Position numbers and translations under genes: made by a program
NCBI GenBank assembly: GCA_038206105.1
Contig: JBBRBF010000004.1
Span: forward strand, 8,053 to 72,052
DNA from: Actinomycetales bacterium
GTDB taxonomy: Bacteria > Actinomycetota > Actinomycetes > Actinomycetales > JBBRBF01
DNA: 64,000 bases
Reading direction: 5' to 3'
The notes under the pieces: model-generated
Told to the model about the DNA's origin: nothing
What the model saw: only the letters and a program-made list of their open reading frames with translations
The model's database searches: none
Part shown: positions 2,029 to 57,801 of the stretch, piece after piece
Numbering within the stretch: position 1 is the stretch's first letter
Layout: every line of letters starts with the position of its first letter

Positions 2029-3054
2029 TCAGTCCGCGAGGGTCAACCGCAGGGGCTCGCTGGCGACCCCGTCGACACTGGCCGTCACCTCGTAGGTCCC
2101 GGGGTCGGCCGCAGGCATGCCCGCCGGGCATCCCGGCGCGCTGTGCACCCGGGCCCAGGTCACCGCCACCCGCGCCTCGACGCCGGGGGCGACGAGCACC
2201 GGGCGCCCGCGCTGCGGCCCTGACACCTCCTGCGGGCAGTGCGCCGAGTCGTACACGAGCTCCTCCCCGGAGGAGACCGCGAGCCCGACGGTGTCGGCAC
2301 CGAGAACCACGGCACACGGCTCGGCGCCCGCCCGGGCGCGGACCACCGCGGAGAGCACCGGGTTCGACCCGGCCCCGGCAGCCGCCGAGTCGGCGCCGGC
2401 CAGCACCTGCACCCCATCCGCGGTGCAGGTGGGGGCGTCGACGGCGGCAGGCAGCGCGGCCGGCGCGTCCTCGGCGCCGGCCTCGGCCCTCGTGTCGCCT
2501 GCCGGGTCGGCTGCCCCGGTGTCGGCAGCCACAGCGTCGGCACCGGCGTCGTCGGCCGCGTCGTCGGCCGCGTCGTCGGACGTCGCGGCGTCCGAGCCCG
2601 GTGCGTCGCCACCGCCGCCCTCGGGCTCCGCGGCGCTGCCGGTCGCCGGGTCCTCACCGGTCGCCGGGTCCTCACCGGTCGCCGGGTCCTCATCCGTCGC
2701 GTCCTGAGAGGTCGCCGCCTCACCGGAGTCCTCACCGTCCCGCGCCTCACCGTCCGCGACAGCGTCCCCGCTCGGGGCGCCACCGCCCTCGGAGGTCCCT
2801 GCCTGCTCGCCGACGGCCGGATCGCCGACGACCCCGGCGATGGCCTGCACGCCGAGCACGGCGACGAGCGTCACGACGGCCAGCCCGAGGACGGCGACCA
2901 GGCGCCGTCGCCGGTAGACCGCCGGGCTGGCCCGCCGCCGGGGTCGGGGCGCCCACGGGGCGCGTCCTGACGTCACGGTCGGCACCCGCCGACGGTAGGG
3001 CGCGCGCAGCCCGGGACGGCGACGGCGCGCCGGGGCCGGCGTCCCTGACCACAC
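2029..3054 (-). CDS. Hypothetical membrane-anchored protein with acidic low-complexity linker and Cys-containing C-terminal domain
   Basis: Arg-rich N-terminus, one TM helix (LVAVLGLAVVTLVAVLGV), D/E/A/G/P-rich spacer and a ~130-aa C-terminal domain with 4 Cys. Family not recognised. Confidence 0.6.
   Translation of the reverse strand: MWSGTPAPARRRRPGLRAPYRRRVPTVTSGRAPWAPRPRRRASPAVYRRRRLVAVLGLAVVTLVAVLGVQAIAGVVGDPAVGEQAGTSEGGGAPSGDAVADGEARDGEDSGEAATSQDATDEDPATGEDPATGEDPATGSAAEPEGGGGDAPGSDAATSDDAADDAADDAGADAVAADTGAADPAGDTRAEAGAEDAPAALPAAVDAPTCTADGVQVLAGADSAAAGAGSNPVLSAVVRARAGAEPCAVVLGADTVGLAVSSGEELVYDSAHCPQEVSGPQRGRPVLVAPGVEARVAVTWARVHSAPGCPAGMPAADPGTYEVTASVDGVASEPLRLTLAD
2641..2694 (-). repeat. 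18-bp tandem repeat x3 inside the CDS (encodes DPATGE x3)
   Basis: ggtcgccgggtcctcacc occurs twice exactly, and a third copy has one change. Confidence 0.9.
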
Positions 3055-6575: not shown

Positions 6576-8770
6576 CGTTGGAAGCAGACGTAGGTCGAGG
6601 AGCCCCCCGACGGCTGGTACCCGATCGAGCGCAAGAACGCGGACCTCGCCGTGGCCTCGCGGGCGAGGCAGACCTGGTCGACGTCGAGCAGGTCCAGGGC
6701 AGCGGTGACCCGTACGGGGTCGCGCATGCCGACCTCCCGGTTGGCGAAGGCGAGCAGGGTCAGCCGCTCCGGGTAGTGGAAGGCGGGCTCGTCGCGCAGG
6801 TGCGCCATGAAGTACGCGCGCGGCGCGACCGTCTTCACCGCCGTGGTGCTCACCGTGACCGTGATCGCGAGGTTGTCCGGCGCCAGCACCAGGTCACCCG
6901 GTTCCGAGGTCGCGAGCACGCCCTCCGCCGCCGCGAGTGACGACGGGTCCCGCTTCCAGCCCGGGGAGACGTCGAGGTACACGCCGTTGGCGCGTGACCA
7001 GATCGGCAGGCCCGAGGCCACGAGCACGACCACGAGCACGAAGGGGGCCGCGAGCCGCCGGACCGTGCGACCACGACGCCCGACCAGCGCGGCCGCGAGC
7101 ACCCCCACCAACGCGGCGACGGTGACCAGCCAGGACACGCGCCACAGGGTGGGCCCGAGACCGATGAGGTCGTAGGCCAGCACGGTCACCCCGGGCACGA
7201 AGGTCACGCCGGTGATGCCGACGAGCACCCCGGTGGTGACCCGCGCCGCCCGCAGCGGCAGCAGCAGCGCACCCGCCAGGACCGCGGCCACGGCGACCGC
7301 CGCGATCGGACCGTCCCTGAAGATCTCGTGCCCGAACCACGCCGGGTCGAATCGGAACAGCTTCCGTGACTCGAACACGTCCGCCGAGCGCCCCCCGAGC
7401 GCGAGGGTGACCACGCCCGCGCCGAGGGGGTAGGCGGCCGCCGCCCCGAGGCCGACGAGCGCACGCACGGGCCGGGTCAGCACCAGCGGGGCCACCCCCC
7501 CGACGGCGAGCAACGGCACGAGGAACATCGCGGTGGTGCTCAGCCCGACCGCCGCGACCCCGCCGGCGAACAGCCACCCGGCACGACGCCACGTCGGCCG
7601 CTCGACGAAGCGCAGCGCGTACACGAGCAGCAGCGGCACGAGGAGGCACAGCAGGATGACCTTGCCCTGCCAGATCCGGATCAGGAACAGGTTGCCCGGC
7701 GCCGCGTACCCGGTGCCCCCGTCCAGGAGCAGGAACGCCAGGGCGACCGACAGGGCCAGCGCGACGGCGCGCACCTGCCACGTGCGCAGCAGCCGCCACA
7801 GCGCCAGCACGGACAGGAACGTCGCCAGCGGTGGCACCACGACGTACACGACGGTCGCCGCGGGGACGCCGATCAGCCACGCGAGCGTGCCGGCCAGGGC
7901 GTCGTAGGACGCCACCGGCGGCCAGCTGGCCATCGGGTAGACGAGGTCCGAGAACAGCGTGTCGCGCACCGGGAACGAGCCGTGATCGACGACCCACTGC
8001 GCCAGGTTGACGTAGTACAGGTCGTCGGGGTTGGACCAGCGGGCCAGCAGCGCCAGCACGCCCAGCCCCGAGGCCCAGGCCAGGGCCACGGCCGAACCGG
8101 GCCCGCTGCCGGAGACAACCGCACGGAGGACCCTCGGCAGCCCCCGCCGCGCGCCGACCGCCTGCGTCGACACGCCGCCCCGCGCGGACGCGGCAGCGCG
8201 CCCGACGGCGGGACCCAGCCCCGCGGCCCCGGCGGTCACGGCCGCCCGGTGCTCGACGACCGCGAGCAGCGTCCCGGCGACGGCGGCGGTCAGCCACATC
8301 CCCGCCACCAGCGGCCACGCTGCCTGTACCGCCATCAGCAGCGCGGCGACCACGGCGGCCAGCGCCGCCGTCGTCAGGAGCACGCCGCGCACCACACCGG
8401 GCGGCCCGAGGACGTCGTCCGGCCGGGTCCCCACCCCCTGCTCGGCGGCGGCGGCGTCGGCAGCGACGGCAGCGACGGTGAGGTCGGGCGGGCCGCCGGC
8501 GTCGGCCCGGCGTCGCCGTCCGGCCCGCCAGGCCAGCAGCCCCAAGCCGGCCAGCGCGACCGCCTCCAGCGCGACGGCCCACTGCACGCCCAGCCGCAGC
8601 ACGAGGCAGACGTGGTAGACGACGGTCCACGTCGCGAGGACGACGACGGAGACGTCGAGCAGCCGGTCGCAGGCCCCGGGCACGCCGTCCCGGCGACGAC
8701 CGGTGGCCCGCGCCACCGACGCGGGGGCAGCGGTCGACCCCTGTGCGAGCCTGGTCCCGAGCGACGTCAC
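6572..8770 (-). CDS. Large polytopic membrane protein, GT-C-fold glycosyltransferase-like
   Basis: 732 aa with more than 12 predicted TM helices. A loop motif NPDDLYYVN resembles the DD-x-Y loop of Emb/Aft-type GT-C enzymes. C-terminal soluble domain. GTG start lies 6 nt after a TAGGGT -10 box. Confidence 0.6.
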   Translation of the reverse strand: MTSLGTRLAQGSTAAPASVARATGRRRDGVPGACDRLLDVSVVVLATWTVVYHVCLVLRLGVQWAVALEAVALAGLGLLAWRAGRRRRADAGGPPDLTVAAVAADAAAAEQGVGTRPDDVLGPPGVVRGVLLTTAALAAVVAALLMAVQAAWPLVAGMWLTAAVAGTLLAVVEHRAAVTAGAAGLGPAVGRAAASARGGVSTQAVGARRGLPRVLRAVVSGSGPGSAVALAWASGLGVLALLARWSNPDDLYYVNLAQWVVDHGSFPVRDTLFSDLVYPMASWPPVASYDALAGTLAWLIGVPAATVVYVVVPPLATFLSVLALWRLLRTWQVRAVALALSVALAFLLLDGGTGYAAPGNLFLIRIWQGKVILLCLLVPLLLVYALRFVERPTWRRAGWLFAGGVAAVGLSTTAMFLVPLLAVGGVAPLVLTRPVRALVGLGAAAAYPLGAGVVTLALGGRSADVFESRKLFRFDPAWFGHEIFRDGPIAAVAVAAVLAGALLLPLRAARVTTGVLVGITGVTFVPGVTVLAYDLIGLGPTLWRVSWLVTVAALVGVLAAALVGRRGRTVRRLAAPFVLVVVLVASGLPIWSRANGVYLDVSPGWKRDPSSLAAAEGVLATSEPGDLVLAPDNLAITVTVSTTAVKTVAPRAYFMAHLRDEPAFHYPERLTLLAFANREVGMRDPVRVTAALDLLDVDQVCLAREATARSAFLRSIGYQPSGGSSTYVCFQR

Positions 8771-8776
8771 GGCACG

Positions 8777-8782
8777 ACCCTA
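8777..8782 (-). promoter_or_regulatory. Candidate -10 box TAGGGT of a leaderless transcript for 6572..8770
   Basis: Minus strand reads cgaccTAGGGTcgtgccGTG. The TANNNT hexamer lies 6 nt before the GTG start. Confidence 0.4.
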
Positions 8783-8903
8783 GGTCGTCGCCGCGGTCCG
8801 CGCCGCGCACACGCCTCCGCGCCCGACGGACGGGCGGGCGGGCGCTGGCAGCGCCGCATCCGGTGCCGGACCGCGTCGTCACGGCGAGGGGCGGGCTCCG
8901 GAG

Positions 8904-8934
8904 CCGTACCCGGATCGCATGATCACCGGGGGGG
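8904..8934 (-). repeat. C-rich/GGTGATCA motif copy A
   Basis: Minus strand reads cccccccGGTGATCATGCgatccgggtacgg. It is near-identical to copy B at 20133..20163. Confidence 0.7.
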
Positions 8935-8953: not shown

Positions 8954-8985
8954 GCGGACGGGCGGACGGGCGGACGGGCGGCCGG
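8954..8985. repeat. 8-bp microsatellite gcggacgg x3 plus one imperfect unit
   Basis: Direct reading of the intergenic region between divergent genes. Confidence 0.9.
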
Positions 8986-17661: not shown

Positions 17662-19121
17662 CGGGCAATCATCCCACCGAGCTCCTCCCAGGCCCGTTCG
17701 GTGCCCCCGGCGACGACGTCCGCGCCGGGGGTGTTCACGGCGTCCGCGGTGACCCCGCAGTGCAGGTGCTCACCGGTGGACAGGACCCCGACCGTGACCC
17801 GCATCCGCTGCCCCAGCGGGATGCACGGGAACGCCTCGAGCAGGGTGCGTCCGGCGAGCGAGCGGGTCCCCGCGGGACCGGGGACGTTCGTCACGGCCGT
17901 CGCGGACCAGCCGTGCCGGGACCGGGCGGCGGACCGCTCGAGTGCGGCCGCCAGGGGCTCGGGCAGCCGTTCCACGAGGCCGAGGGCCGCGACCGGGCCG
18001 AGGGCGGCCGGCCCCGCCGTGGCCTCCCGGAGCCGAAGGTGCACCAGCCGCACCCTCGCCACCGGGTCCGGCTCGGACACCGGCAGGCCGACGACCACCC
18101 CGGAGACGAGGTTGCCCCCCGAGCCCCGCTGCCCGGGGTGCCGCAGCGACACCGGCACCAGGGCACGCAGGGTGCGCCCCGCCACCGGCGTGCCGCGCGA
18201 GAGCAGCAGGTCGCGCAGACCACCTGTGACGCAGGCGAGCGCCACGTCGTTGACGCTGCCCCCCAACCCTGCCGCGGCCGCCCGGGCGGTCACGAGGTCG
18301 CCGCGTGCCCAGCGCCACTCCCGCCGTGGCGACAGCGGACCCGACAGCAGCCGCTCGCCGGGCCCGACGGCCGACGCGAGGCGGGCGACGCCCGCGACCC
18401 CCCGCAGCGGCGTGGCGGCGCCCAGCACCCGCCGACCCGTGCCCGGCGTCGGGGCCGGCTCCGCCGCCGCGTCGACGCCGCGGCGAGCCGGCCCGGGGTC
18501 CCCGGGTGCCGCTCCCGTCGCGCCGCCGGCGGGCTCGGCCGGCCCGGCCGGGTCCAACAGCGCGAGCAGGGCGTCGACACCGGCCAGTCCGTCCACGAGG
18601 GCGTGGTGCGCGCGGACGAGCACCGCCCACCGGGGCGGCACGCCGCTGGACGCGGGGCCGGCCGCGCCACCGGTGCTGTGGCCTGGAGTGGCCGCGTCCC
18701 AGCCCGTCAGCACGTGTGCGTCCCACAGCGGTCGGTCCCGGGGCAGCGGGGGTTCGAGCAACCGGGAGACGGCCGCCTGCAGCAGCAGCTCGCCCGAACC
18801 GGGCTCGGTCGCCGAGCCGGCCGGCGGGTCCCCGGCGCCAGGGCCGTCCCGGCCGGACGACAGGTCGTGCCACACGAGGTGGCGGGCGACGTCGACGTCC
18901 GCGTCGACCCACCGGGGGCGGCGCAGGTCCCCCACGGTCGTGGCGACGACCTGCCGCAGTCGTCGCGGCAGCCGCTCGGCGAGCAGGCGGCCCAGCGCGG
19001 CACGGCCCGGCGCCGGTCCGGCCAGCACGAGCAGGAAGGCGACGTGCACCGGCTGCACGTCACGCTCCACGCGCAGGAAGGCCGCGTCCAGCGCGGACAG
19101 GCGGTCCCCGCTGCCGGTCAC
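17658..19121 (-). CDS. Wax ester synthase/diacylglycerol acyltransferase (WS/DGAT)
   Basis: HHALVDG active-site motif and N-terminal LSALDAAFL. GTG start overlaps the upstream stop (GTGA). Confidence 0.85.
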   Translation of the reverse strand: MTGSGDRLSALDAAFLRVERDVQPVHVAFLLVLAGPAPGRAALGRLLAERLPRRLRQVVATTVGDLRRPRWVDADVDVARHLVWHDLSSGRDGPGAGDPPAGSATEPGSGELLLQAAVSRLLEPPLPRDRPLWDAHVLTGWDAATPGHSTGGAAGPASSGVPPRWAVLVRAHHALVDGLAGVDALLALLDPAGPAEPAGGATGAAPGDPGPARRGVDAAAEPAPTPGTGRRVLGAATPLRGVAGVARLASAVGPGERLLSGPLSPRREWRWARGDLVTARAAAAGLGGSVNDVALACVTGGLRDLLLSRGTPVAGRTLRALVPVSLRHPGQRGSGGNLVSGVVVGLPVSEPDPVARVRLVHLRLREATAGPAALGPVAALGLVERLPEPLAAALERSAARSRHGWSATAVTNVPGPAGTRSLAGRTLLEAFPCIPLGQRMRVTVGVLSTGEHLHCGVTADAVNTPGADVVAGGTERAWEELGGMIAR

Positions 19122-20065
19122 GGAGCCCCGCTGGCGCGGTCGGGGCCGGCGGGGACGGCCGGGGCGGTGTGGCCGGTGACCTCGGCGAGCCAGTCGCGGA
19201 GCAGGTCGGCGGTGCGCTCGGGGATCTCGAGCATCGGCACGTGGCCGACCCCGGCGAGCTCGACGTAGCGCCAGTCGGGGTGGGCGGCTGCGACGCGGCG
19301 TGCCGCAGCGACCGGGACGAGCCGGTCGAGGTCGCCCTGCACCATGAGCACCGGGGCGCTCACCGCGCCCGTCATGGCCGCGTACGCCCGGTGCCGCGTG
19401 AGCACGCCGAGCAGGCTGCGCGTCGCCGTGAGGTAGGCCGCGTCCAGCCGGCGGTGACCCGACCGCCGGCGCCAGAGCTGCTGATGGGCCTCGACGAGGT
19501 CGGCAGGGACCCGGGAGGGGTCCGCGCAGCACATCCAGATGCTCTGGGCGACCAGCTGCTCCGCCGTGGAGCGCCGCCGTCGCGAACCGATCAGCAGCTC
19601 GCCGAGGCCCGGAACGGCGTAGCCGGCGAACCCGGCCGCGGTCAGGGGGTGCAGCCGGCTCCGGCCGGTGGGGACGGCCGGCGCCATCAGCGCCAGCGCC
19701 GACACGGTCGCGGGCGTGCGCGCGGCCTGGCGCAGGCAGAGCAGCCCGCCCATGGAGTTGCCGAGGAGCGCCACAGGATCCCCCGCCGGTGCGGCGACCT
19801 CGGTGACGAACCGGTGCAGCAGCCGCGCGTGGCCCTCGACCGTGCAGTCCCGCAGCGCCGGGCGGGTGAGCCCGTGCCCGGGCAGGTCGGGCACCAGCAC
19901 GCGGTAGTGGTCGGCCAGGAGGTCGGCCACCGCGAGCCAGTTCGCGTGGGATCCCGCGAGGCCGTGCACGCAGACCAGCGGCGGCGCTGCATCGCCGGCG
20001 TCCCCGACGACCTCAAGGTAGTGCGTCGGGCCGCCGAGGTCGGCCCAGCGGCTGCGCACGGGCAT
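19118..20065 (-). CDS. Alpha/beta hydrolase
   Basis: VHGLAGS oxyanion region and GNSMGG nucleophile elbow. ATG 20065 is preferred. An in-frame GTG at 20170 would pull motif copy B into the CDS. Confidence 0.8.
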   Translation of the reverse strand: MPVRSRWADLGGPTHYLEVVGDAGDAAPPLVCVHGLAGSHANWLAVADLLADHYRVLVPDLPGHGLTRPALRDCTVEGHARLLHRFVTEVAAPAGDPVALLGNSMGGLLCLRQAARTPATVSALALMAPAVPTGRSRLHPLTAAGFAGYAVPGLGELLIGSRRRRSTAEQLVAQSIWMCCADPSRVPADLVEAHQQLWRRRSGHRRLDAAYLTATRSLLGVLTRHRAYAAMTGAVSAPVLMVQGDLDRLVPVAAARRVAAAHPDWRYVELAGVGHVPMLEIPERTADLLRDWLAEVTGHTAPAVPAGPDRASGAP

Positions 20066-20132
20066 TCCTGCAGCATCACCCACCGCGGCCGGTCCTGCCT
20101 CTCCGCCCTGCGGCGATCCGCGATCAGGCACA

Positions 20133-20163
20133 CCCCTCCGGTGATCATGCACATCGGGTACGG
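20133..20163 (+). repeat. C-rich/GGTGATCA motif copy B
   Basis: Plus strand reads cccctccGGTGATCATGCACatcgggtacgg. It forms a 15/17 inverted repeat with the first 32-bp unit downstream. Confidence 0.7.
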
Positions 20164-20188
20164 CCGGCACGGGGGGCCCACACGCGGC

Positions 20189-20316
20189 ACGATGTCCTTG
20201 ATCACCATGGGGACGGCGGCACGACGTCCTTGATCACCATGGGGGCGGGGGCACGACGTCCTTGATCACCATGGGGGCGGGGGCACGACGTCCTTGATCA
20301 CCATGGGGGCGGGGGC
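20189..20316. repeat. 32-bp tandem repeat x4 (three identical units plus one 29/32 variant)
   Basis: Unit acgacgtccttgatcaccatgggggcgggggc at 20221, 20253 and 20285. The variant unit is at 20189. Lies in the divergent intergenic region. Confidence 0.95.
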
Positions 20317-20411
20317 GGCCTCGACCACCGGGGGTGGCGCGCGTCGGGGGGACGGGGGGCGGCCGGGTAGCGTCGGCGGGACACCCGCTCCCCCACGCAC
20401 CCGGAGAACCG

Positions 20412-21347
20412 ATGCCGCTGCGCGCCACCCGCGACGCGACCTGGCTTGTCGCGCTGGCAGCCGGCCTGTGGGGCACGGACGCCCTGCTCCGCCTCCCGCT
20501 GACCGGCGAGTACTCCGCGGCCACGATCGTGGCGGTCGAGCACCTCGTCATCGTCCTGGTGACCCTGCCCTGGCTGCCCGCCGCCATCCGCGCGCTCAGC
20601 GCGGCCTCGCCGAGGACCCGGTGGGCGGTCGTCGTCATCGGGGTCGGGGCCTCCGCGCTGGCGACCGTGCTGTTCACCCAGGCCTTCGGCTACGGCGGGC
20701 CGGTGACGCCGCTGGTGCTGCAGAAGCTGCAGCCCCTCGTCGCGGTCGCCGTGGCGTGGCTGCTGCTGCGCGAGCGGGTCACCCGCCGGTACCCCCTGTT
20801 CCTGCTGCCTGCGCTCGCCGGTGCGTGGCTGCTCGCCTTCGCAGACCCGCTGCGGGCGACACCGAGCAGCACCGTCGCCGCGCTGCTCGCGCTCGGGGCG
20901 GCGGTGCTCTGGGGCACCGGCACCGTGCTGGGCCGGCTGGCCGGGGCGGAGATCGGGTTCCGCGACCTCACGGTGCTGCGCTTCGCGGTCGGGCTCCCGG
21001 CGAGCCTGACCTTCGCCGTGGTCCTCGGCGAGCCGGTCACGGTCGCGCTGCGCGACGTCCCAGGGGTCGTCGGCCTGGCGCTCATCCCGGGTCTGCTGGC
21101 CCTGTCGTTGTACTACCGCGGCCTGCGCCGGACGCCGGCGAGCCGGGCCACGCTCGCCGAGCTCGCGTTCCCGTTCACCGCGGCGCTCGTCGGTGTCGCC
21201 GTGCTGGGCGCCACCCTGACGTGGACGCAGTGGCTCGGGCTGCTCGTGGTCGCCGCGTCGGTGACCGCCCTCGCACTGCACGAGCGCGTGAGCCGCTCCC
21301 CCGCCGTCGCGGTCCCCGCGCCCGTCGAGGAGGCGGTGAGCCGGTGA
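20412..21347 (+). CDS. EamA/DMT-family transporter
   Basis: About 10 TM helices in two EamA-like halves. ATG 20412 preceded by GGAGA. Confidence 0.8.
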   Translation: MPLRATRDATWLVALAAGLWGTDALLRLPLTGEYSAATIVAVEHLVIVLVTLPWLPAAIRALSAASPRTRWAVVVIGVGASALATVLFTQAFGYGGPVTPLVLQKLQPLVAVAVAWLLLRERVTRRYPLFLLPALAGAWLLAFADPLRATPSSTVAALLALGAAVLWGTGTVLGRLAGAEIGFRDLTVLRFAVGLPASLTFAVVLGEPVTVALRDVPGVVGLALIPGLLALSLYYRGLRRTPASRATLAELAFPFTAALVGVAVLGATLTWTQWLGLLVVAASVTALALHERVSRSPAVAVPAPVEEAVSR

Positions 21348-22186
21348 GCTCGTCCCCGCACGGGCGGGCGCCGGACGCACCCGGACCGGCGGGCGGCTCC
21401 CGGGGCGTGCTCGTGACCGGCGGGTCGCGCGGCATCGGCGCGGCGGTCGCCCGCACCTTCGCGGCCCGGGGCGACCGGGTGGCCGTGCACTGCCGCGCCG
21501 CCCGGGGGCGGGGCGAGGAGGTGGCGGCGTCGCTGGACGGCGCGGGCCACGTCGTCGTGCAGGCCGATCTCGCCGACCCCCAGGCCGTCCGGGACATGGT
21601 CGGCGACGCCATCGAGGGGCTGGGGCGGGTGGACGTGCTGGTGAACAACGCCGCGCTGTTCACCGACGCCGCCTCCGGCAGCCGTCGCGGGGACCACCGT
21701 CTGGCGGACACGGGGTACGAGGAGTGGGTGACCGCGTGGCGGCGCACCGTCGACGTCAACCTGCTCGGGACGGCCAACGTCACCTGGTGCGTCGCCCGGC
21801 ACATGCTCGCCGCGCCCGCCGCTGAGGGCCGGCCGGCGGGCCGGGTCGTGTGCGTCGGCTCGCGCGGCGCCTACCGCGGCGAGCCCGACGTGCCCGCCTA
21901 CGGCGCGACGAAGGCGGCCGTGCACTCCCTCGCTCAGTCCCTGGCCCTGTCGCTGGGTCCGGACGGGATCGCGGTGAGCGCCGTCGCGCCCGGCTTCGTG
22001 GCGACCGAGATGGCGGCCGCGGTGCTCGACGGCCCGGGCGGCGACGCCGTCCGCGCGCAGAGTCCCTTCGGACGGGTCGCGACGCCCGAGGAGGTGGCCG
22101 AGGCGGTGCTGTACCTCGCGTCCGACGCCGGTGGCTGGGCGTCCGGGGCCGTGCTCGACGTCAACGGGGCGTCCTACCTGCGCTGA
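21344..22186 (+). CDS. SDR-family oxidoreductase
   Basis: TGGSRGIG and YGATKAA motifs. GTG start overlaps the EamA stop (GTGA). It is the tail of track ORF 20294..22186. Confidence 0.85.
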   Translation: MSSSPHGRAPDAPGPAGGSRGVLVTGGSRGIGAAVARTFAARGDRVAVHCRAARGRGEEVAASLDGAGHVVVQADLADPQAVRDMVGDAIEGLGRVDVLVNNAALFTDAASGSRRGDHRLADTGYEEWVTAWRRTVDVNLLGTANVTWCVARHMLAAPAAEGRPAGRVVCVGSRGAYRGEPDVPAYGATKAAVHSLAQSLALSLGPDGIAVSAVAPGFVATEMAAAVLDGPGGDAVRAQSPFGRVATPEEVAEAVLYLASDAGGWASGAVLDVNGASYLR

Positions 22187-22284: not shown

Positions 22285-22760
22285 CTACCGGTGACCGCGT
22301 CCGTTGCGGTTCGAGAACTTCGGTTGGCTCTGCACGTTGAGCTCGTCGAAGTCGACCCGTGCGGCCTTCTCGAACCGCCGTCCGCGCAGCTCGAGCACGT
22401 CGAAGCCCTTGACGATGTCGGAGCTGTAGACGTAGCCGTTGTACCAGTACGCCGACCAGGTGCCGCCCACGACGAGCTCGGTGTCGCCGAGCGTGCCGCG
22501 CTCCCAGTAGCCGAGCTCGCGCGGGTTGCGCGTGTTCGTGAAGTCCCACACCGAGACCAGACCCCGCCCTGGTACCAGGACTGCACCATCACGTCCCGGC
22601 CCGGAACCGGGACCAGGGAGCCGTTGTGGGCGACGCAGTTCTCGGTGGACGCGTTCTCGCGCGGGATCTTGTAGTAGCTGCGCTTCACGAGCTCGCGCCT
22701 GTCCCGCCGGCCGACGATGTCGTAGATGCCGTTGGCGCCGCGCGTGTCCGCGATCTCCGG
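22285..22760 (-). pseudogene. LVIVD-repeat (beta-propeller) protein remnant, 5'-truncated and frameshifted
   Basis: Homology runs in one frame (NCVAHNGSLVPVPGRDVMVQSWYQGG). It then continues in another frame (SVWDFTNTRNPRELGYWERG...YWYNGYVYSSD). The shift at about 22550-22565 looks like a small gtctg duplication. Confidence 0.6.
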
Positions 22761-25365: not shown

Positions 25366-25394
25366 GGGACCCGGAGTGCATGATCACCGCGGAG
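25366..25394 (-). repeat. C-rich/GGTGATCA motif copy C
   Basis: Minus strand reads ctccgcGGTGATCATGCACtccgggtccc. Confidence 0.6.
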
Positions 25395-25411
25395 CGGTGG
25401 GGACGTGCGAA

Positions 25412-25445
25412 GGCCCCCGGCCTCCGCATGGGAGGGCCGGGGGCC
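25412..25445 (-). terminator. Hairpin terminator candidate downstream of clpC
   Basis: ggcccccggcctcc gcat gggagggccgggggcc, 40 nt after the clpC stop. No U-tract, which is common in high-GC actinobacteria. Confidence 0.5.
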
Positions 25446-25484
25446 GCCGTGTCGTGCCGGGTGTTGCTGGTCGGTCGCTGCTGG

Positions 25485-57251: not shown

Positions 57252-57731
57252 ATGTCCGTCGTCTCTGCTCCGGCTCCCATGACCACCTCGACCGGCGCCT
57301 AGCTGCCCCTGGTCACCCTCCCGCAGACCGAGCTGCTGAGCGTGAACCAGAAGGACATCCCGGTGATCAAGGACGCGCTGGGGCCCGGGGTGCACTTCCA
57401 GCCGCTGCGCCTGGACATGGAGCTGGGCGAGTGGGTGCCCTGGCACTACCTGGAGTACCCCGACCAGCCGCAGACCGCCGGCTCCTACCTGTTCGAGCCG
57501 GGGTCCTCCGTGCACACGCTCGTCTGCCCCGACTCCAACACCGAGGGCACCGTCGTGCTGTTCCGCGTGCACGGCGCGAACATCAACGTCAACGAGGACG
57601 GCACCGACCACTCCATCCTCGACGTGGCCCTGATCCGGCACCTGACCGACGCCTTGTCCGAGGCCCAGGGCCTCGGCGAGGTCACCTACGTCGGGGGCGG
57701 CGCTGCCGGCCTCACGACCGCGGGCACCTGA
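57252..57731 (+). pseudogene. 2,4'-dihydroxyacetophenone dioxygenase-like cupin with in-frame TAG
   Basis: ATG 57252 with GAAAGGA RBS and an in-frame TAG at 57300..57302. Family-like sequence continues immediately after it (LPLVTLPQTELLSVNQKDIPVIKDALGPGVH...YLEYPDQPQTAGSYLFEPGSSVHT). Confidence 0.55.
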
Positions 57732-57771: not shown

Positions 57772-57801
57772 GGACCTGTCGTGCATGATCACCGAGGGGG
57801 G
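57772..57801 (-). repeat. C-rich/GGTGATCA motif copy D
   Basis: Minus strand reads cccccctcGGTGATCATGCACgacaggtcc. Confidence 0.6.

Follow-up and report, generated by a model that had tools for sequence, protein, structure and literature searches.

What is a tandem array of 32-bp units doing between two divergently transcribed actinobacterial operons? The question is raised by a 64,000-nt stretch of an Actinomycetales genome (JBBRBF01 in GTDB; contig JBBRBF010000004.1, positions 8,053 to 72,052, hereafter the window), in which four tandem units and an inverted copy separate a hydrolase-WS/DGAT operon on the minus strand from an EamA-SDR gene pair on the plus strand. On the minus strand the units also contain overlapping mini-open reading frames (mini-ORFs) rich in proline codons. 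From these traits, a first-pass annotation of the window had proposed a divergent control region that might work as an iteron or operator array, as a multi-state hairpin or as a polyproline stalling leader. Our analysis points elsewhere, namely to a block of about 200 bp that we interpret, with a probability of roughly 0.55, as a locally amplified member of an interspersed non-coding repeat family, comparable to the repetitive extragenic palindromes (REP), bacterial interspersed mosaic elements (BIME) or miniature inverted-repeat transposable elements (MITE), inserted or expanded specifically in this lineage. Three sets of observations carry this interpretation: the anatomy of the block, its relationship with copies dispersed elsewhere, and empty sites in relatives.

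A tandem array facing an inverted module

The array described in the first-pass annotation, with three identical units and one variant, is borne out in detail, including its position between the two sets of genes. Tandem Repeats Finder (TRF) delimits it at 20186-20316 with a period of 32, 4.1 copies and 96% matches, and its score of 241 is the highest of the 125 rows returned for the window. The 32-mer GGCACGACGTCCTTGATCACCATGGGGGCGGG matches without any mismatch at 20218, 20250 and 20282 and with three mismatches at 20186, and has no match in the shuffled window; the register annotated previously (20189, 20221, and so on) describes the identical array with an offset of 3 nt. Read on the minus strand, units 2-4 have a C-tract (CCCCCGCCCCC) ahead of a degenerate box (CATGGTGATCAAGGACGTCGTG). 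What had been called an inverted fifth copy is a canonical family module on the plus strand, composed of a C-tract (CACCCCTCC), the box GGTGATCATGC (20140-20150), and ACATCGGGTAC, and it shares its box and type of flank with three other sites in the window and with relatives. Its relationship with the tandem units also holds: the inverted arms at 20140-20156 and 20190-20206, each of 17 nt, are complementary at 15 of 17 positions (88%), and the inverted copy is 75% complementary to units 2-4 over 24 nt. The tandem units can be aligned with the canonical module in the C-tract, in GGTGATCA, and in ACNTCG, the ACATCG flank of unit 1 being specifically common to this unit and the adjacent canonical copy, and they carry two substitutions (TGC to AGG) within the otherwise invariant box. 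A degenerate half-copy of the box (CGCGATCAGGCAC as compared with GGTGATCATGCAC), which precedes the canonical box by 21 nt, completes the block, whose edges at G/C-rich junctions are uncertain by a few bases.

The array could in principle be an artefact of assembly, or a simple local variable-number tandem repeat (VNTR) unrelated to any family. The block, with the apparent copy number of its array, occurs in one assembly only, and the length of the array (128 bp) is near that of short reads. Nevertheless, unit 1 differs from the others at three positions, the sequence on both sides is unique, an inverted partner is present, and the units have the C-tract and box architecture of the family, all of which makes this explanation very improbable. 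A BLASTN search with the block against plasmids and phages gave no match. The core of the unit has an exact 14-nt match (CGGTGATCAAGGAC) at 57361-57374, inside a cupin gene, where it encodes PVIKD; a scan of metagenomes with the unit core yielded 33 matches, all coding (PMVIKD motif) and none in arrays, and the 19-mer core recurs there solely as PMVIKD coding sequence. We judged the cupin match to be a coincidence of codon usage.

A dispersed box with a strand-asymmetric flank

The 11-mer GGTGATCATGC has four exact copies in the 64 kb, at 20140 (+), 8917 (-), 25378 (-) and 57783 (-), with a chance expectation of 0.72 even for matches with up to one mismatch. Each of the four lies between genes, and elsewhere the 8-mer GATCATGC is absent from the window. 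The family module can be defined as (C)GGTGATCATGC(A) preceded by about 80 nt that are rich in C and poor in G; in the CGGTGATCATGC orientation, each copy is preceded by the C-rich tract and followed by N3-5 CGGGTAC or GGTCC. In 17 copies, taken from all the genomes studied, the C/G ratio over the 80 nt upstream ranges from 1.15 to 4.8 (95th and 99th percentiles of the background, 1.44 and 1.70), and there is no C/G skew downstream of the box. When the window is examined in 130-nt segments, the four family sites are among its six most G/C-skewed places, the array with the G-rich tract on its right (20314-20367) being the first of them. Canonical G-quadruplex motifs form four clusters in the window, none of them within the array, whose one conspicuous trait in this respect is the general G/C skew.

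Outside the block, the three window copies are all solo modules (Table 1). In the contigs of two relatives (L001, ENA ERZ25039476 contig_58694, and L170, ENA ERZ25039498 contig_122037), which carry one to two box loci per 21 kb, the boxes at 25378 (in both relatives) and 8917 (in L170) persist as conserved islands amid diverged spacers. The C-rich tract beside the 8917 box is made of four copies of the 8-bp repeat GCGGACGG in the window versus six copies of CCCCGA in L170 (about 20440-20530), a case in which composition has been maintained and sequence has not. Since short tandem repeats adjoin this copy and differ between genomes, local tandem amplification beside the box is a recurrent process. 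For the 57783 copy, no syntenic relative was found by way of DhaK homologues. Because the box is invariant and its solo copies are conserved, the sequences suggest that some protein recognises it, and the box may thus have a protein-binding role at the DNA level. Next to the 25378 copy, we observed a GC-rich hairpin without a T-run at 25408-25447, after the clpC stop codon, that is kept in L001 and L170 and has an apparent compensatory change (C-G to U-A) in its stem; past the hairpin come first the box and next a conserved, promoter-like TTGACG block for the 98-aa/DUF4331 operon.

The family is not restricted to these close relatives. A scan of reference genomes with CGGTGATCATGCNNNNNGGTNC gave, among the matches listed, mostly coding coincidences (such as the thiolase sequence DPVIMLTGP) and four informative non-coding loci, L071, L116, L121 and L126, where independent evidence comes from additional copies that the search pattern did not force and from common flanks. 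The L071 arrays start 5 nt past a stop codon and end upstream of a thiolase gene. A 46-aa ORF (MGSKQDDAQQAPHRPTMIGPACMIGPVCMITTGGG...) crosses the right-hand L071 array and, like the mini-ORFs at 20186-20313, is probably incidental to the repeats. Besides the element listed in Table 1, L116 has two tandem copies at a separate site, with the stop codon of a gene within the box. The L126 hairpin lies directly upstream of the CTTGAGT-N7-ACTCAAG repeats (HAIR/HspR operator) of a heat-shock gene promoter. In full-text literature, the only matches to the box sequence were PCR primers; the family has no Rfam entry and we found no description of it.

Over all loci, the copies occupy four divergent, two convergent and three co-directional spacers, a distribution that looks like that of a repeat and not like that of promoter-proximal operators. 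It also bears on the idea of a termination or insulator module, in which the C-rich tract would be a Rho-loading (rut-like) RNA region and the box a pause or factor site, the inverted pair with its four-fold arm blocking read-through into either operon. In agreement with it, the strong excess of C over G is confined to the upstream side of the box, and in all co-directional and convergent spacers examined the box lies on the same strand as the upstream gene and after its stop codon (+97 nt for ClpC, +34 nt for the aldo/keto reductase, +5 nt for L071, the stop within the box for L116, and both strands for L121). The pattern GG-N6-TGC-G/A also resembles the elemental pause consensus, although this likeness is weak. 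However, the informative loci amount to only four or five, for which such an orientation would arise by chance with p of about 0.06, and at the four loci in divergent spacers there is no end of an upstream gene. A role in termination therefore seems to us improbable for the block.

Table 1. Coordinates of the repeat block, of other family copies and of neighbouring features. Positions are those of the window unless another sequence is named; MAG, metagenome-assembled genome.
Feature	Position	Strand	Remarks
Lineage-specific block, about 200 bp (half-copy, canonical module, spacer, four tandem units)	20114..20313	.	Hydrolase/EamA spacer alignments
Degenerate half-copy of the box	20117..20129	+	Sequence inspection
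Canonical family module	20130..20165	+	
Spacer separating the two inverted arms	20166..20185	.	
Tandem unit 1 (variant, 3 differences)	20186..20217	-	
Tandem units 2-4 (identical 32-mers)	20218..20313	-	
G-rich tract right of the array	20314..20367	+	Partly common to relatives
Solo family copy, DUF6077/GtrA divergent spacer; C-rich tract at 8954-8985	8917..8927	-	Box kept in L170
Solo family copy past the ClpC stop codon, beyond the terminator hairpin	25378..25388	-	Kept in L001 and L170
Solo family copy past the aldo/keto-reductase stop codon, between convergent genes	57783..57793	-	
Alpha/beta hydrolase gene, first of the hydrolase-WS/DGAT-isochorismatase-GNAT operon	19118..20065	-	
EamA transporter gene, followed by the SDR gene	20412..21347	+	
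Candidate -10 of the hydrolase operon, GATGCT, 6 nt from the ATG at 20065 (leaderless layout)	20072..20077	-	Kept in 3/3 genomes; putative function
Candidate -10 of EamA, TAGCGT, within the invariant CGGGTAGCGTCGGC block	20368..20373	+	Three-genome conservation; putative function
L071, 3+3 copies of an 18-nt unit with GATCATGC, in inverted arrays about 140 bp apart	Kineosporiaceae MAG DASQJO010000106, 98-345		
L116, 190-bp element, its terminal inverted repeats about 32 nt long	Same Kineosporiaceae MAG as L071, 1660-1850		
L126, 95-bp family hairpin	Acidothermaceae MAG, 2650-2740		
L121, pair of copies exactly between convergent genes	Actinomycetota MAG		

Empty sites, core promoters and readings of the array

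The hydrolase protein clusters with three sequences of other assemblies. In L001 and L170, whose hydrolases are about 86-89% identical to it, the divergent EamA/hydrolase arrangement and the neighbouring genes are kept, and the flanks of the spacer align well, but some 200 bp corresponding to 20114-20313 are missing, that is, the half-copy, the inverted copy, the spacer and all four units. In the third assembly, the hydrolase has an N-terminal extension that is the translation of the empty-site sequence. Because the orthologous spacers of relatives lack it, including the upstream sequence implied by the third assembly, the block is not a conserved control element of these operons, which counts against the divergent control region proposed at first, and its absence from the hydrolase/EamA spacer of two relatives indicates that it is dispensable for both operons and lineage-specific, whichever way the event is polarised. 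Comparison of the empty and filled sites reveals at most a GCGG-like repeat of 2-4 bp at the G/C-rich junctions, which is uninformative. In the more distant L171 and L172, the neighbour of the hydrolase gene is different, an SDR gene only 50-100 bp away. As for the quality of these sequences, clpC, DUF4331, the epimerases and many more genes are fragmented in L170 as compared with the window and L001, which suggests frameshift errors in the L170 assembly, so its indels need care; the 200-bp absence in L170 is corroborated by L001.

The same alignments reveal two conserved motifs that we consider as candidate -10 elements (Table 1), the one for EamA preceding a start codon that we place at 20412 instead of 20413. 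A similar arrangement to that of the hydrolase (GATGCT-N6-ATG, 20065-20077) is found at the start of the DUF6077 gene (TAGGGT-N6-GTG, 8770-8790), and these two cases suggest that leaderless mRNAs may be common in the source organism. With the conserved -10 elements at these positions, both core promoters would lie downstream of the block, and probably neither mRNA includes it. A scan of the GC-rich segment 19950-20500 for sigma-70-type promoters and intrinsic terminators returned zero matches.

These positions matter for the idea of a translated leader, according to which the overlapping mini-ORFs would be translated and EF-P-dependent stalling at PPPP would tune expression of the hydrolase operon. 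The ORFs are certainly present, as the first-pass annotation reported, with stop and start codons overlapping in ATGGTGA: the minus-strand ATGs at 20304 and 20272 open MVIKDVVPPPPW followed by a stop, the one at 20240 opens MVIKDVVPPSPW followed by a stop, and the one at 20208 opens an ORF of 173 aa that is out of frame with the hydrolase. By contrast, the signals expected for a stalling leader (a ribosome-binding site or leaderless start, a location inside the leader, and a conserved peptide) are missing. The 14 nt before each mini-ORF ATG are C-rich and contain no Shine-Dalgarno sequence, in agreement with the earlier observation, no TANNNT-N6 leaderless promoter precedes these ATGs, and the putative hydrolase promoter, with its leaderless ATG, is downstream of the array. 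PPPP simply results from reading the C-tract CCCCCGCCCCC in codons, and a C-rich tract lies ahead of each copy of the family; across the other copies the reading frames give unrelated peptides and the frame is not conserved. The 173-aa ORF has a non-coding pattern of G+C content at the three codon positions (0.56/0.82/0.85, versus 0.81/0.56/0.94 for the hydrolase), and relatives do without the block altogether. We consequently discarded the polyproline leader, to which we attach hardly any probability, and regard the mini-ORFs, their proline codons and the 32-bp phasing as by-products of the module sequence and of the accident of which unit was duplicated.

A structured RNA, in which alternative pairings of the inverted copy with units 1-4 would produce a multi-state hairpin, a riboswitch or a small RNA, meets similar difficulties. 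The 15/17 complementarity is real and is used in the minimum-free-energy fold of the block. However, folding of the block equals that of shuffled sequences (z = -0.54 and -0.48 for the two strands, and about 0 for single modules), and the best candidate stem has no compensatory pairs, with 64% of its cells pairing and shuffles doing equally well. Rfam models gave no match at the gathering threshold in the whole window, with chance-level matches only (E of about 5-9) in 19000-21500, and the block lies probably upstream of both transcription starts. A multi-state hairpin in either transcript, as proposed at first, is accordingly highly improbable. Two further candidates were rejected: an internal module hairpin (CCGGTG...CAYCGG), which shows no covariation, and a likeness to the 3' end of 16S rRNA (GCCGTACC...GATCACC), whose scores of 18-19 (shuffle mean 13, random window segments up to 27) are those of chance.

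The main rival to a repeat expansion is an operator array, in which a transcription factor or nucleoid protein would bind the box and the array would add four such sites plus one inverted, co-regulating the hydrolase/WS-DGAT and EamA/SDR operons. Several observations agree with it: the box is invariant in sequence without any structural covariation, solo copies are kept at orthologous sites, the block is just upstream of both putative core promoters, and the 3+3 boxes of L071 are upstream of a thiolase gene, the hydrolase/WS-DGAT locus being also lipid-related. Against it, relatives with the same operons lack the block, copies occur also between convergent genes and directly past stop codons, about one copy per 10-16 kb is a high density for a regulon, and the tandem units carry the two box substitutions mentioned above. 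Furthermore, no regulator gene was found among the genes adjoining the block, and the periods of the arrays vary (18, 21 and 32 nt), so the helical phasing that had suggested an iteron or an operator face is not a property of the family. We compared the box with the known actinobacterial operators of CRP/GlxR, Rex, PhoP, MtrA, DasR, FadR, BldD, ArgR and CsoR, and with the promoter spacings of SigF/SigB or ECF sigma factors; none fitted in spacing or sequence, and these comparisons are leads only. All in all, we consider an operator array possible but unlikely. An iteron is contradicted by the setting, a conserved actinobacterial chromosomal region (radA-disA ... lsr2-clpC-lysS-panC ... ftsH; 75% G+C in the window) with no replication initiator gene. 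In the same region, downstream of the SDR gene, the G+C content falls locally to about 65-68% (22300-22700), and the ORFs found there have no Pfam match.

Relation to known repeats and meaning

In the block two modules face each other, the canonical copy on the plus strand and a minus-strand arm that has been amplified head-to-tail into the four 32-bp units, presumably by replication slippage or unequal recombination. The amplification is recent, since three of the units are still identical. Under our preferred interpretation, the block would sit between two divergent core promoters as a sequence that neither operon requires, and whatever influence it had on the flanking genes would be exerted through the factor that recognises the box.

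Several points weigh against a mobile or selfish repeat. Mobility is not demonstrated, as there is no clear target-site duplication, no second whole 200-bp element was found, and the ORFs scanned in the window include no transposase. L001 and L170 may share a deletion, an event that the outgroups L171 and L172, with their different neighbour gene, cannot polarise. Solo copies kept amid diverged flanks, together with an invariant 10-nt box devoid of hairpin covariation, resemble a selected protein-binding site more than selfish DNA. Finally, the copy number of the family was counted within the 64-kb window only, and the pattern used to find the foreign copies (L071, L116, L121 and L126) forced the presence of the box in them.

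Among known repeats, the family is closest in habit to the REP, BIME and REPIN sequences of Enterobacteria and Pseudomonas, which are also short, dense and extragenic, are found alone, in inverted pairs or clustered in all types of intergenic spacer, and persist vertically at orthologous sites while varying in presence between relatives. The four loci in 64 kb are all intergenic, and pairs or arrays occur at L071, L116, L126 and L121. The unit, however, is no imperfect palindrome or stem-loop of 20-40 nt, but an invariant 10-nt box with a strand-asymmetric C-rich tract, and because the module is not palindromic the block is not a classical REP. Among about 45 window ORFs scanned, none encodes a REP-associated tyrosine transposase (RAYT, a Y1 HUH transposase), and the RAYT/REPIN literature that we retrieved does not mention Actinobacteria. 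With MITEs such as the Correia/NEMIS elements of Neisseria, the block has in common that it is a non-coding insert near promoters, bounded by terminal inverted repeats and in a size range of about 100-250 bp, and both the 200-bp block (20130-20165 opposed to units 1-4) and the L116 element fit this size range and architecture. In contrast with MITEs, solo half-elements are common, as exemplified by the other three copies in the window, and no parent transposon is known from our data; with an unreadable target duplication and no second full-length copy found, the label of MITE cannot be applied with confidence.

Other comparisons are looser. The BOX elements of Streptococcus pneumoniae are modular intergenic repeats (boxA-boxBn-boxC) with a tandem-variable module. 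As in them, the end modules of our block are related in inverted orientation and one module varies in tandem copy number, but the amplified module is here one of the inverted arms, the sequence is unrelated, and the host is an actinobacterium with 75% GC. The mycobacterial interspersed repetitive units (MIRUs) of Mycobacterium form a dispersed family and carry small ORFs that overlap at their stop and start codons. The array resembles them as an actinobacterial intergenic tandem repeat of a dispersed family with such overlapping ORFs, although MIRUs measure 40-100 bp, lie between co-transcribed genes and are frame-coupled, whereas the unit here has 32 bp and occupies a divergent promoter spacer, and its ORFs have no initiation signals, the last one being out of frame and non-coding in its statistics. 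Iterons and operator arrays likewise combine identical direct repeats with an inverted one, spaced by roughly three helical turns, but no initiator or regulator gene adjoins the block, which stands in a chromosomal housekeeping context, is absent in relatives and belongs to a family without conserved phasing. Finally, neither a covariance-model match nor a significant structure relates it to known structured RNAs.

A more speculative possibility, which we regard as rather unlikely, is that the module itself (about 80 nt of C-rich, G-poor sequence plus the invariant box GTGATCATGC) may serve high-GC Actinomycetota as a functional element that is orientation-specific and as yet undescribed, either a Rho-type terminator or 3'-end signal, or the substrate of an unrecognised domesticated transposase in the manner of REPIN-RAYT systems, that spreads and amplifies locally. 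The array facing the fifth copy would in that case be a newly acquired bidirectional insulator.

For the locus itself, the outcome is deflationary. The polyproline mini-ORFs and the three-turn phasing that made the array attractive appear to be side effects of a recently amplified repeat, and there is therefore no reason to pursue it as a stalling leader or as an iteron. As a recent and dispensable repeat expansion, the array is of modest interest, although it may serve as a VNTR marker for strain typing. The family behind it is the more useful result, with its box and strand-asymmetric C-rich tract conserved at orthologous intergenic sites and present in several actinobacterial lineages. Should the box turn out to signal termination or to be targeted by a domesticated transposase, it would have a bearing on two matters: the way in which GC-rich actinobacteria without canonical terminators end transcription, and the existence of REPIN-like systems outside Proteobacteria.

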